From Octopus sinensis (Eukaryota): DNA of 64,000 nucleotides. The notes under the pieces were generated by a model. It had not been told where the DNA came from. It saw nothing but the letters and a program-made list of their open reading frames with translations, and made no database searches. This document shows positions 5,801 to 14,800 of this stretch, piece by piece (position 1 is the first letter of the stretch; each line of letters opens with the position of its first letter). Location: positions 14,751-78,750 of the forward strand of contig NW_021831879.1 of assembly GCF_006345805.1 (NCBI RefSeq), given 5' to 3'. The translations under genes and the position numbers were made by a program.

Positions 5801-8800
5801 GTAGTCTATAAATATAAGACTAAATCTGCCGCTGATTAGCTCCAAGAGGCCATCGCCTCTAGCTAGCTATATGACACACGAACCTGCGTCCATTATAACC
5901 TTCAAACAGGGGAGGTCAGCCGCTTCCCCTTGCTGGTCAGACATCTGCAGACATGTTTCAGGGTAGTTGCCCTTTATCAATGCAGAGTAGTCAGACCCAG
6001 CAGGTATCGCTACCGACCGTCTGTTCGAAGGATTTATTTACCTAATTTCAGTGGAATACATCCACTTCTTTTCAATAATAGAAGTATTAAAATTACTAAG
6101 TCTCTCTAAAGGAGATTACGGCAGCGTTGCTGGATATTAATAGTTATCGCCAAGCTAATATGGTAGTCTATAAATATAAGACTAAAGCTGCCGCTGATTA
6201 TCTCCAAGAGGCCATCGCCTCTAGCTAGCTATATGACACACGAACCTGCGTCCATTATAACCTTCGAACAGGGGAAGCGGCTGACCTCCCCTGTTCGAAG
6301 GTTATAATGGACGCAGGTTCGTGTGTCATATACTACTAGAGGCGATGGCCTCTTGGAGATAATCAGCGGCAGCTTTAGTCTTATATTTATAGACTACCAT
6401 ATTAGCTTGGCGATAACTATTAATATCCAGCAACATATATATATATATATATATATATATGTTGTGGTGTGTGGTGTGTGTGTGTGTGTGTGTGTGGTGT
6501 GGTAATGTGTAATATATATATATATAATATATATATGTATATACATAAATGTATATATACATAAATACATACATACTTATGCATATATATCCAGCTGTAA
6601 AGCCATCCCAAATGATATATTTCAATATACACAACACTGAATTCTGAGTTTCGCCATGATATGAGCACATGAGTATGAATCACACATACACACACACATA
6701 CATACACAGACATACAAACACACACTTATATACATACCTCTTTTAGTTCGCCAGTCAGTTATATTTTCCAGTTGAAGGTCCTTTTCTACCTCTAGAGATA
6801 ATGTCTCATGACCCTTTAGTTGAGCCTTTATCATAAGATTTAAGAGGTTTTTTTGCATCTACAACATATATTTTCAAGTATTTAATTTAAATTTTCATTA
6901 GAAAGATAATTAGATGACATTTGTATAATTTAATCAAACTTATTGATACTAAGACTCAAACAGAAACAATGAGTATGTTTCATATATTTCTTATTTCAGT
7001 CATTGGACTTCGGCCATAATGGAGCGCTATCTTAAGCAGTTTAGTCGAACTTGGTGGGAAAAGACTGTGTGAATACCTGTCGTGTGTGTCTGCATATATA
7101 TATATATATATATATATATATATCACGTGATCACGTGACCGACCAGTCCATAAGATGTAGTTACACAATGCGTTCGCTGGCTAAGCGAGCAGGCCAACAG
7201 AAGAAAGAGTGGGAGAAAGAGTGGTGAAAGAGTACAGCAGGGATCACCACCCCCTGCCGGAACCTCGTGGAGCTTTTAGGTGTTTTCGCTCAATAAACAC
7301 TCACAACGCCCGGTCTGGGAAACGAAACCGCGATCCTATATATATATATATATATATATATATATATATAATATATATATATAACGAGTTCCCACACAGG
7401 CTTCATTTACCAACTTCACGCACAAGGCATAGTTGAATTGAAGACAGTTACCCAAGGTGTGCCTTGCAGTTGGATTGAGCCTGAAATCGCACGGTTGCAA
7501 AGGGGCTTGTTAACCAACCATCCATGCCTGCATGGTCATATGGTTATATGGTGGATAGTCTTAATAAGGTCGCAAATACAATCCAATAGATGCAGTGACA
7601 GTGATGGTTAGTAGTAAGCGGGTCCTAAGAGTGAAAGAATCATGTGTGCTTGATACGACTATGTGTTTTCTGTTAGAGACGTGAGTACGGATCAAAGATA
7701 GTTGACTCGAGCAGTTCAGGATTGCAAAAATGTTTCAACGTGTGCAGTTTAATGTATGAGTGGTGTTTCCGTATTGGTATTACAAGCATGTATGTGTGTG
7801 GAGTAGATTGAAGTCACGAAGGATGAATGCCTCAGAAGAGAGAGTTATACCGTGTATAACCAGTTCTATATTTTCGCCAACTTCGATGTTTCAAGGAAAT
7901 TAGAAAAAATACAACTGAAAACTTACGTCATTATTCATTTGGGTTTTCTTCCGATCGTCTATCAGTTGTTTCCAAAGTTTTCTGAAGAGTACTTCGTTAC
8001 CAAAAACTGAATTTAGTAAATTCAATTTTGCTAAAAGTATCGTTGTACTCGGAAAAAGCACTGGAATGTGATTTTTAAAACAAATTACGTTATTTTTACA
8101 GACTCTCTGTGTGTATGCGTGAATATGTGTGTGTGTTTGTATGTGTGCGTGTGTATATATGTGTGTGTCTAAATACATATATATATAGATAATATATGCA
8201 TTTAAATATAAATTTATTCGCATATATAAATGCATATATATATGCATATATATATATGCATATCTATAAGTGTAAATACATACATGTATGTATATACGTG
8301 TGGAGGCACATGGCCTAGTGGTTAGAGCAGCGGACTTGCGGTCGAGGGATCGCGGGTTCAAATCTCAGACCGGGCGATGTGTGTGTTTATGAGCGAAACA
8401 TCTAAGCTTCACGCGGCTCCGGCAGAAGGTAATGGCGAAACTTCTGCTGACTCTTTCGCCACAACTTTCTCTCACTCTTTCCTCCTGCATCTTGCAGCTC
8501 ACCTGCGACGGACCGGCGTCACATCCAGGTGGGGAACCTATTCGCCAAGCAAACCGGGAAACCGGCCCTTATGAGCCATGCATGGCTCGAGAAGGAACAA
8601 ACAAACAACAATGTATATATGTAAATACAGTTATTGGCTACCTGATGTGATCATAATTTGGGAATGCTCTTGCTACTGGACATACATCACGAATTCTATA
8701 GCATTCGTTGTGTTTATATAGATAGATAAATGATAGAGAATGGATTGAGCGACATTCATTATTTAAATCCACTACAGTTGTTTCGGCACATTTTTACTCA

Positions 8801-11800: not shown

Positions 11801-14800
11801 GCTACATTTAGATAAAATACTTAAAATCTGGTGCAGTAGAACAAAATTTAAGAGAAAAATTTAAGAGAAAAAATGTATAGACAAAACTGGTTGACTGACG
11901 GATCGTAATGCCCGACATTAACATTTTGACTCTACAACCATTCTTTTAATTTTGATTAAGAATTATTATATTGATATTAATACGAAAGAGAAATGTTAAA
12001 GGAATACATTGATAAAGGTTTCGTAAAATGTTATCCATTAGTAAAAAAATATATTTAATCTTGATTCTCAAGCTTTTATCAATTTTTGCGTGAAATTAAA
12101 GAGACGCGACTCATATATGAACTATTTCTTAGGAGCACACACAACAAAAGATCGCAAATCGATGCAAAGAGTATTCAAATTGAGTAAACAGTAAATAGCA
12201 CTAGAAGAAGAAGAAGAAGAAGAAGTAGAAGAAGAAGAAGAAGAAGAAGAAGAAGGAGAAGAAGAAGAAGAAAAAGAAGAAAGAGGAGGAGGAGGAGGAG
12301 GAGAAGAAGAAGAAGAAGAGAGAAGAGAGAAGAAGAAGGAGGAGGAGGAGAAGAAAAAGAAGAAGAAGAAGAAGAAGAAGAAGGAGAAGGAAAAGAAGGA
12401 GGAGGAGACGAAGAAGAAGAAGAAGAAGAAAGAGGAGGAGGAGCAGGAGGAGGAGGAGAAGAAGGAGAAGAAGAAGAAGAAGAGAGAAGAAGAAGGAGGA
12501 GGTGGAGAAGAAGAAGAAGAAGAAGAGAGAAGAAGAAGAAGAAGAAGGAGAAGGAAAAGAAGGAGGAGGAGACGAAGAAGAAGAAGAAGGAGGTGGAGGA
12601 GGAGAAGAAGAAAAGGAGAAGAAGAAGAAGAAGAAGAAGAAGAAGAAAAAGAAGAAAAAGAAGAAGAAGAAGAAGAAAAAGAAGAAGAAAGAGGAGGAGG
12701 AGCAGGAGGAGGAGGAGAAGAAGGAGAAGAAGAAGAAGAGAGAGAAGAAGAAGGAGGAGGTGGAGAAGAAGAAGAAGAAGAAGAGAGAAGAGAGAAGAAG
12801 AAGGAGGAGGTGGAGAAGAAGAAAAAGAAGAAGAAGAAGAGAGAAGAGAGAAGAAGAAGGAGGTGGAGAAGAAGAAAAGAAGAAGAAGAAGAAGAAGAAG
12901 AAGAAGGAGGAGGAGGAGACGAAGAAGAAGAAGGAGGAGGAGGAGGGGGAGGAGGAGAAGAAGAAGAAGAAGAAGAAGAAGGAGGAGAAGGGAGCTAGAC
13001 AACATAGATAAAATAAGTGGGGCCATATATAGGGAATCAGTTTATCTATGCCTATTATTATTATCTGTCAAAAGATTTCTATATTTGAATCAACAACTGC
13101 TATGAACGAACTCCATCTAAATTAAATTACAATATTCGCACCTGTCGAAACCTGCACTTGCAGTAGAAGTTTTACATTAGAGAACTATGAAAAGACCAGC
13201 CGTTGAAGTAAGCTCTAAGTCGAAAGAAAGAAATAAAGCAGTTATATGGGTGCTGTAAAATTCTCTTTAAAATATTTACGATTTATCTGTCACAAATACC
13301 TGTCTTTATTGTCTTGTTTTGGAACTTAAATTCTGATAAGACTATATTATGTTGCAGTGTGGAAGGTGTTTATAAGCCATTTAAGAAACACACAAAAAAC
13401 CGTTAGATTCACTTCAACATTTAAATTTAATTTGTCAAAATATTTTCGTCGCTTTGAGACCGCGACCTGTTCACTGACATGACGGCGCAGTAAAAATTCT
13501 CTTTGAAATATCTACGATTTATCTATCACAAATGTCTCTTTTGTCTTGTTTTGGGACTTAAATTCTCATAAAATCTGGTCCTACAGTTAAGAGAAAAATC
13601 TGGTCTATCTGAACAACAGTTAAGAGAAAAAGTACTCACTTTTTAATAATAAATTTCGTTTGCATGTTTTATAATGCTCCTTATTATAATGCTCCTTATT
13701 ATTGCATGTTGTATAATGATAATGCTCCTTATTATTGGGGGGAGGGAGTAAATATATATATATATATCAATTTAAAGACTCAACCGAAAGAGCTACTAAT
13801 AGCTTTATGCTATACTAGCAGTATCGCCCGGCGTTGCTCGGGTTTGTAAGGGAAATAACTATATAAGCATTTTTAGAGATGTAAAGTATAATAGCCATCT
13901 CAATATGGCTAACCACAAGGGGGGTGGGTGTTACTGTAGCTTTTTACGTTCTGAGATTTAATAAACTTTTAGAGAGCTACTTCCCTTATATATGCCAAAA
14001 ATGCATTGAAAATGGGAAAAATTGATGGTAATTTTTTCTTAAATCGTAGACTCATCGTAGACGCGCGCTAATACCCAGAAGGGCTCGATATGAATCACGA
14101 CTATAAGATACCCGGTTTTGGTTAAACTGCACCGCAAAATATGGGAGTAGTTAGGAATCTAAATCGTAGGAGACAAACAGCACACAACCTCTCTTTTATA
14201 TATAAAGATTTGAACGTGCATGCAACACGACATGTGCGCGCGCATGTATGTGTGTGTGTGGTGTGTGTGTGTGTGTGTGTGTGTGTGTGTGTGTGTGCAT
14301 GTGTGCATGTGTGAATCACTGCTTTCATTGCGAGTCGTGTTCCCAGTCAGTTCATGTAGGGTGTTGTCTAACAATTTTCTTTTCTGATACTGAACGAAAT
14401 GTTTTATTCAGGAAAAGAATTATGTGATATACTTATGTACGTTTTAACTTCTCTGATTTCTCCATTGTCAGCCAGATTTCCAAATTTTTCAACCAGTATA
14501 TTAGCATATGTTTGGATCATTGTATTCATCTATAATCAACATAGAAAAGTATTTTAAGGAACAAGTTGTAACTTATATATTCAGTATCACTCGGTCAGTC
14601 ATTTACTCAACAGTTATACCTAAAAACGTTTAGTCTCCTCATTCTTCGAATCTCTTAGCATTATTACAGCAGCCTGTACTGTAAGCAAGAGAAGAGGACA
14701 GTAGTTTGAAAGGCAGCCAATGAACGCAAGGAAATATTAGTTTCAAGTTTTGGCACAAGGCCAGCAATTTTGGGGAAGGAGGTAATTCGATTAGATCGAC

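Follow-up and report, generated by a model that had tools for sequence, protein, structure and literature searches.

Two retroelement-borne hammerhead families with swapped 3-8 core pairs, U3-A8 and G3-C8, in the genome of Octopus sinensis

What does it signify when a hammerhead ribozyme departs from the familiar CUGANGA core at both members of its 3-8 pair, and in such a way that the two nucleotides still match? The question is raised by a stretch of 64,000 nucleotides of the Octopus sinensis genome (contig NW_021831879.1, positions 14,751 to 78,750, forward strand; hereafter the window), in which a preliminary description noticed two hammerhead cores, UUGAUAA and GUGAACA, and proposed that such double changes, arising in two independent families, argue for selection on catalysis. 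Following both motifs through the genome, we find that each swap is the fixed state of a whole repeat family, U3-A8 in family A and G3-C8 in family B, and that the two families are indeed unrelated elements with different swaps. We consider it moderately probable, at roughly 0.62, that both are retroelement-borne hammerheads whose 3-8 swap was fixed family by family, whose predicted cutting is weak and mainly dimeric, and in which the pair is favored rather than demanded.

A descriptor with positions 3 and 8 left free yielded five matches in the window: the family A motif, two family B copies, a canonical hammerhead at 5207-5252, and a weak match taken as chance. Both motifs lie where the preliminary description had placed them, on the minus strand, and form type I folds, with three helices, ends in stem I, and the U4 G5 A6 N7 / A9 and G12 A13 A14 A15.1-U16.1 core present (Table 1). 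The family A core is U3-U4-G5-A6-U7-A8-A9 (position 3 at 5980, position 8 at 5975), accompanied by a 4-bp stem II (A10.1-U11.1) with a 6-nt loop, GAA, and the palindromic stem III ACAUGU; the internal loops of its extended stem I are the predicted partner of loop II and would provide a tertiary contact. The family B core is G3-U4-G5-A6-A7-C8-A9 (position 3 at 13474, position 8 at 13469), followed by one extra G before G10.1-C11.1, with a 5-bp stem II, GAA, and the palindromic stem III AAUAUU. By the NUH rule N17 must not be G (PMC8495972), and it is G in neither family, being C17 in 24 of 25 family A and U17 in 97 of 97 family B descriptor matches. A stricter descriptor, which requires a palindromic stem III, returned 12 matches in the window together with 600 kb of genome chosen blindly, as against one in 15 shuffles of the same sequence; ten of the 12 are Watson-Crick at 3-8.

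The genome-wide consensus was obtained with exact-flank patterns, positions 3 and 8 free, run on the 2.72-Gb genome; such patterns favor young copies, and their counts are lower bounds. All 44 family A copies carry U3-A8 and none the canonical C3-G8. Among the 1735 family B copies, 1567 carry G3-C8, 119 are altered at position 8 only, 46 at position 3 only, and three at both (C-A, U-U, and U-A); again, none is C3-G8. The consensus of neither family is therefore CUGANGA, as the preliminary description had surmised, and the two sister copies to which it drew attention, CUGAACA at 45630 and AUGAACA at 14908, read as it reported and are both decayed copies of family B. The former comprises a full 203-nt unit (45618-45820) and an inverted arm (45552-45610); the latter has lost G12 and one stem II pair. 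Family B units measure ~200-225 nt, begin ~20 nt before the core, end in (TA)n, and frequently bear an inverted truncated arm. No copy of either family that covers the core occurs in the 600 kb of blindly chosen genome.

Covariation of positions 3 and 8 is not found among the copies of family B: three double changes are seen where 3.4 are expected under independence, which is the outcome that the preliminary description had set against its own proposal. This independence indicates that inserted copies decay at random and that the swaps were inherited from master elements. Selection, if any, acts on the masters, about which independence among dead copies is uninformative, so that the question has to be addressed one level higher, among families.

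At that level, the strict descriptor applied to 1.64 Mb gave 154 matches in 19 clusters: nine C-G, seven U-A, two C.A (single copies), and family B, scored G-C from the genome-wide tally since the sample had been enriched for G8 on purpose. The 3-8 pair is Watson-Crick in 17 of the 19 clusters and in 6 of 17 matches from 20 shuffles (Fisher p 0.001), although the clusters are non-independent and much of the 1.64 Mb was fetched around targeted families. All eight clusters altered at both positions are Watson-Crick. With only nine of 19 clusters canonical, CUGANGA searches do lose such motifs, as had been anticipated. Rfam, too, gave no hammerhead among its 98 matches in the window at E up to 1, which are mostly microsatellite-like microRNA models, and missed even the canonical 5207-5252.

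The relatives of family B complicate this picture. A looser pattern recovered older sisters, which align with B over the whole unit outside the pattern-forced letters (score 46, maximum 40 in 1000 shuffles) and have a median identity to their own majority of 78%, as compared with 96% for B. With positions 3 and 8 free, 24 such relatives comprise 17 U3.G8 (family X), three C3.A8, two A.A, one U-A, and one C-G. Two further families were gathered by DNA search from one seed copy each: family Y, with C3.A8 in 24 of 30 copies and a compensated stem I, and family Z, with C3-G8 in 20 of 30 and a perfect 8-nt palindrome, which X and Y lack. Shared-block identity is 94% between X and Y, 81-82% for Z, and ~60% between B and any of X, Y, and Z. 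B thus split early; positions 3 and 8 toggle within the lineage, and amplification has included families whose pair is broken. By parsimony the ancestor of the lineage would be C3-G8, with U3-A8 an equally short solution for the ancestor of X and Y; L081, a decayed relative, reads U3-A8. When X and Y, both missed by the descriptor, are included, 17 of 21 clusters are paired (p 0.007). Two further single-copy C3.A8 hammerheads, at L145 and L295, each resemble a paired family, and C.A may be a recurrent intermediate.

Elements of this lineage can multiply without a matched 3-8 pair, as X and Y did, and the pair is likely favored, not essential. The inference of selection on catalysis drawn in the preliminary description thus stands in part: such selection is likely at the family level, where 17 of 19 clusters are paired, but it is not established for G3-C8 itself.

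Family B is very likely the terminal repeat (pLTR) of a Penelope-like element (PLE) with a C-terminal GIY-YIG domain. Seventeen B copies share a common upstream extension, and at three of these loci (L023, which is G3-C8, L319, and L322) GIY-YIG remnants lie on the same strand, 1.1-1.3 kb upstream of the core. These remnants are 50% identical to L081, which has a Pfam PF01541 match, so that the link is not a direct Pfam match. Related remnants lie upstream on the same strand at five of 30 Z loci. B also displays the extra nucleotide between 9 and 10.1, the G10.1-C11.1 pair, and the palindromic 15.2-16.2 region described for PLE hammerheads (PMC4209133), as well as inverted 5′-truncated partner copies and microsatellite targets, which are PLE features (PMC8557442). 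No shared continuation past the 3′ end of B appears among 100 listed of 233 matches. Two candidates for a fuller element were set aside: a PLE-type reverse transcriptase (RT) remnant (L024:2511-3035, plus strand), which lies 1 kb from a B copy and belongs to another clade, is unlinked, with microsatellites between, and same-strand B pairs 2-5 kb apart are without an open reading frame (ORF) and look like local duplications. An intact 780-aa PLE ORF with RT plus GIY-YIG does occur elsewhere (L113:2952-5291, plus strand), and its 3′ end contains a U3-A8 hammerhead with A17 at ~5860. Copies of this 780-aa frame are many and near-identical, which suggests a young family.

How might such hammerheads act? 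With two repeats on one transcript, the palindromes could pair into a 6-bp stem III, a Watson-Crick 3-8 pair, whether U-A or G-C, would position nucleotide 8 for catalysis, and a cut after N17 would trim or circularize the element RNA. In predicted energies, the family A double-hammerhead fold (-26.6 kcal/mol) lies 0.4 kcal/mol from the dimer minimum (-27.0), whereas the active monomer fold (-5.0) lies 6 kcal/mol above its minimum (-11.0). Cleavage in family B would likewise be weak and dependent on dimers, serving to trim element RNA. Its G3-C8 likely derives from C3-G8 via an unpaired intermediate of the kind tolerated in this lineage (U3.G8 in X, C3.A8 in Y). In published tests, cleavage is lost when position 3 or 8 alone is altered and returns in part with C3G/G8C (PMC11167929; PMC8495972); a PLE hammerhead, whose cleavage called for protein, is among those in which this partial rescue was shown (PMC11167929). 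In B, moreover, G3 can pair with N17 and extend stem I, at a computed opening cost of 1.3 kcal/mol with U17 and 3.5 with C17, and a G3-C8 variant is stated to work better without C17 (PMC3884650, data not shown there). Co-evolution of U17 with G3 was considered and dropped, since B, X, Y, and Z all carry U17; U17 predates the swap and represents a permissive background, not a co-adaptation, which would weaken the competing 3-17 pair and so likely ease the arrival of G3. We entertain, tentatively and at less than even odds, the idea that one PLE lineage records a natural walk through C3-G8 (Z), U3.G8 (X), and C3.A8 (Y) to an active G3-C8 (B), eased by an older U17.

Several observations weigh against the reading of A and B as retroelement hammerheads with a favored 3-8 pair. 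Regarding the element, the ORF pieces at L319 have no Pfam match of their own, and the stretches examined contain truncated remnants only, with no intact RT(-endonuclease) ORF flanked by two B repeats. Regarding cleavage, the active dimer fold of family B is predicted at -21.8 kcal/mol, 5 above the dimer minimum of -26.8. Regarding the pair, the seven U3-A8 clusters may share one origin, which would shrink the family-level count, a lone double change has a 1 in 3 chance of ending on a Watson-Crick pair, and the unpaired majorities of X and Y are made up of dispersed copies on many contigs. As these families spread unpaired and insertion in vitro proceeded normally with published hammerhead mutants (PMC11167929), the G3-C8 of B may be drift. 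G3.G8, finally, makes up ~4% of B copies on a C-to-G background of ~0.4% (one subfamily site set aside), a tenfold excess. One rival reading is that the hammerhead of the B lineage is a relaxed relic that need not cut and persists as a folded handle for an element protein or as a hitchhiker, with G3-C8 as a chance end point of drift: neither the pair nor a perfect palindrome accompanied the amplification of X (17 of 24) and Y (24 of 30), the compensated stem I of Y looks as if the fold rather than the chemistry had been kept, and the in vitro study detected no RNA ends where the cut would fall (PMC11167929). Against it stand B, which at ~60% identity to X, Y, and Z retains all other core nucleotides, G10.1-C11.1, and a perfect palindrome, and the 17 of 19 paired clusters; we regard it as unlikely, if well worth keeping in mind.

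The opposite view, strict selection on catalysis under which only Watson-Crick elements spread and X and Y are passengers or unexpectedly active, draws on the same cluster count, on the absence of canonical copies among 1735 B and 44 A copies, and on the loss of cleavage upon published single changes (PMC11167929; PMC8495972), but it has to explain away the dispersed unpaired majorities of X and Y and two further single-copy C3.A8 clusters; it appears quite improbable. More specific still is the suggestion that G3 was fixed in B by some signal that overlaps it, such as a splice acceptor, whereupon C8 followed and restored pairing, with G3.G8 as the surviving intermediate. A run of U and then CAG ending at position 3 is visible in the B sequence, the intron of Drosophila Penelope ends at helix I (PMC4209133), and by hand count the 100 listed G3 non-C8 copies divide into 58 G3.G8, 33 G3.U8, and nine G3.A8. 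Yet no diagnostic site unites the G3.G8 copies, which are spread over every subfamily background, and their inverted arms read C8 in eight of the 11 cases where the arm is visible, suggesting either an assembly error or a change that postdates insertion. An intermediate subfamily is accordingly unsupported, and we give the splice-acceptor account very little credence. The G3.G8 excess may reflect a mutational hotspot, a minor master, or errors of assembly. Of the 58 copies, 26 cluster on two contigs, C20 (2.0-6.7 Mb and 17.4-17.7 Mb) and C30 (11.1-12.5 Mb); those on C20 also carry the upstream extension and, in loop II, a further C-to-G substitution.

Family A is of a different nature. Its unit is 362 bp, non-coding, and found in tandem, with two hammerheads 362 bp apart at L036/L037; most copies, the window copy included, hold only one. 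The geometry is that of canonical metazoan type I hammerheads (PMC4209133), with a 6-bp helix I, a 4-bp helix II, and a palindromic helix III. Across 30 copies, the outer pair of stem I reads G-C in 16 and U-A in 11, three being unpaired, and stem III is ACAUGU in 16, ACGCGU in ten (both palindromic), and non-palindromic in four; these compensated changes between subfamilies count as two events, the subfamilies being related. No homology to the U3-A8 PLE exists outside the core, and the sole neighbor (L080) is inverted, with (TA)n between. Four sequencing runs, whose labels name four organisms, have contigs that map to the family A unit, and positions 3 and 8 are untouched among the 40 run-contig differences listed. 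Unit-length back-joints appear both in guessed-RNA contigs and in those of other runs, as would be expected from tandem DNA; no RNA run figures among the matches listed. Predicted from DNA, family A fits the kind of retrozyme without long terminal repeats (non-LTR retrozymes). Like metazoan non-LTR retrozymes (PMC7229834; Li et al., 2026, 10.64898/2026.07.22.740005), it combines tandem units, no coding capacity, canonical geometry, and a PLE-like inverted arm, and its 362 bp fall within the 350-390 bp of mussel retrozyme units; it differs in its U3-A8 core and its A10.1-U11.1 pair, and is known here from DNA.

Table 1. Hammerheads, element copies, and other repeats in the window
Feature	Position in window	Strand	Details
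Family A type I hammerhead	5944-5986	-	6-bp stem I; cleavage predicted after C17 (5950)
Extended stem I of family A	5925-6005	-	Internal loops; from predicted fold
Sense arm of family A insertion	5772-6275	-	~1.4 units of the 362-bp tandem unit; (TA)n end
Inverted, truncated arm of the same insertion	6269-6434	+	(TA)n-flanked
Family B type I hammerhead	13433-13479	-	5-bp stem I; cleavage predicted after U17 (13438)
Family B terminal-repeat copy	13352-13479	-	Both ends truncated; 97.7% identity with the family majority across 128 nt
Decayed family B copy	14898-15024	+	A3.C8 (AUGAACA, position 3 at 14916); 87.6% identical
Family B copy with inverted arm	45552-45820	+	C3.C8 (CUGAACA, single change at 45637); motif match 45630-45680
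Decayed family Z copy	42688-43136	+	Majority core C3-G8; position 3 at 42799
Cores related to the 5207-5252 hammerhead	3689 and 5459	+	
9-bp minisatellite, 29-bp tandem array, two long near-perfect hairpins (303-nt, 136-nt arms)	12170-13100, 21096-21878, 31954-32568, 60258-60543		
Dispersed ~244 bp repeat	1325-1568, 9767-10010, 17440-17683, 18842-19085, 52229-52632, 55834-56077	both	

As for the surroundings of these copies, the minus strand carries exons of cytochrome P450, for its helix I and ExxR regions, at 4932-5090 and 39924-40034; their order presupposes two genes in tandem. The A and B motifs at 5944-5986 and 13433-13479 are sense to these exons and probably situated in introns. Solitary copies would be near-inert without a partner, and an intron would tolerate a ribozyme that depends on dimers. 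An imperfect ~80 bp duplication (13250-13340 and 13490-13570) flanks the family B copy at 13433-13479. The canonical hammerhead at 5207-5252 (minus strand) is a CUGAUGA motif of PLE type with a 4-nt palindrome, an inverted partner ~200 bp off, and a third core nearby.

To what extent are these swaps new? The U3-A8 half of the finding is ordinary, known, and common in this genome. U3-A8 covaries naturally with C3-G8 in several hammerheads (Perreault et al., 2011, PMC3088659), a swap identical to that of family A, and has ~1,300 matches in Schistosoma Cercyon PLEs (PMC4209133); it is thus a published natural variant with a published PLE search descriptor, and to this extent the preliminary description claimed too much. 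Of G3-C8, no natural report was found. The accessible part of Perreault et al. (2011) does not name a natural G3-C8, and the literature searched, which left out some key papers and colon spellings, contained engineered examples only. The engineered C3G/G8C hammerheads (Frangieh et al., 2024, PMC11167929; PMC8495972) bear the same core swap as B and are partly active, but they are laboratory mutants in another context, whereas the swap of B is natural and present in at least 1567 genomic copies. With the pLTR hammerheads of Schistosoma Cercyon and other metazoan PLEs (Cervera and De la Pena, 2014, PMC4209133), B shares the type I fold within a terminal repeat, the extra 9/10.1 nucleotide, G10.1-C11.1, a short palindromic helix III, and copies that are mostly solitary or inverted and truncated; a G3-C8 consensus with U17 goes unmentioned in the accessible part of that account, and B further differs in having U3.G8 and C3.A8 sisters.

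Why PLEs keep hammerheads at all is an open question, as these cut poorly and cutting is dispensable for insertion in one in vitro system. If the proposed walk to an active G3-C8 is true, family B would give the record its first naturally occurring G3-C8 ribozyme at high copy number, and its lineage would serve to probe whether PLE hammerheads need to cut. The four homologous terminal repeats of this lineage bear C-G, U.G, C.A, and G-C at positions 3 and 8, so that the rate of cleavage could be compared with the success of amplification.

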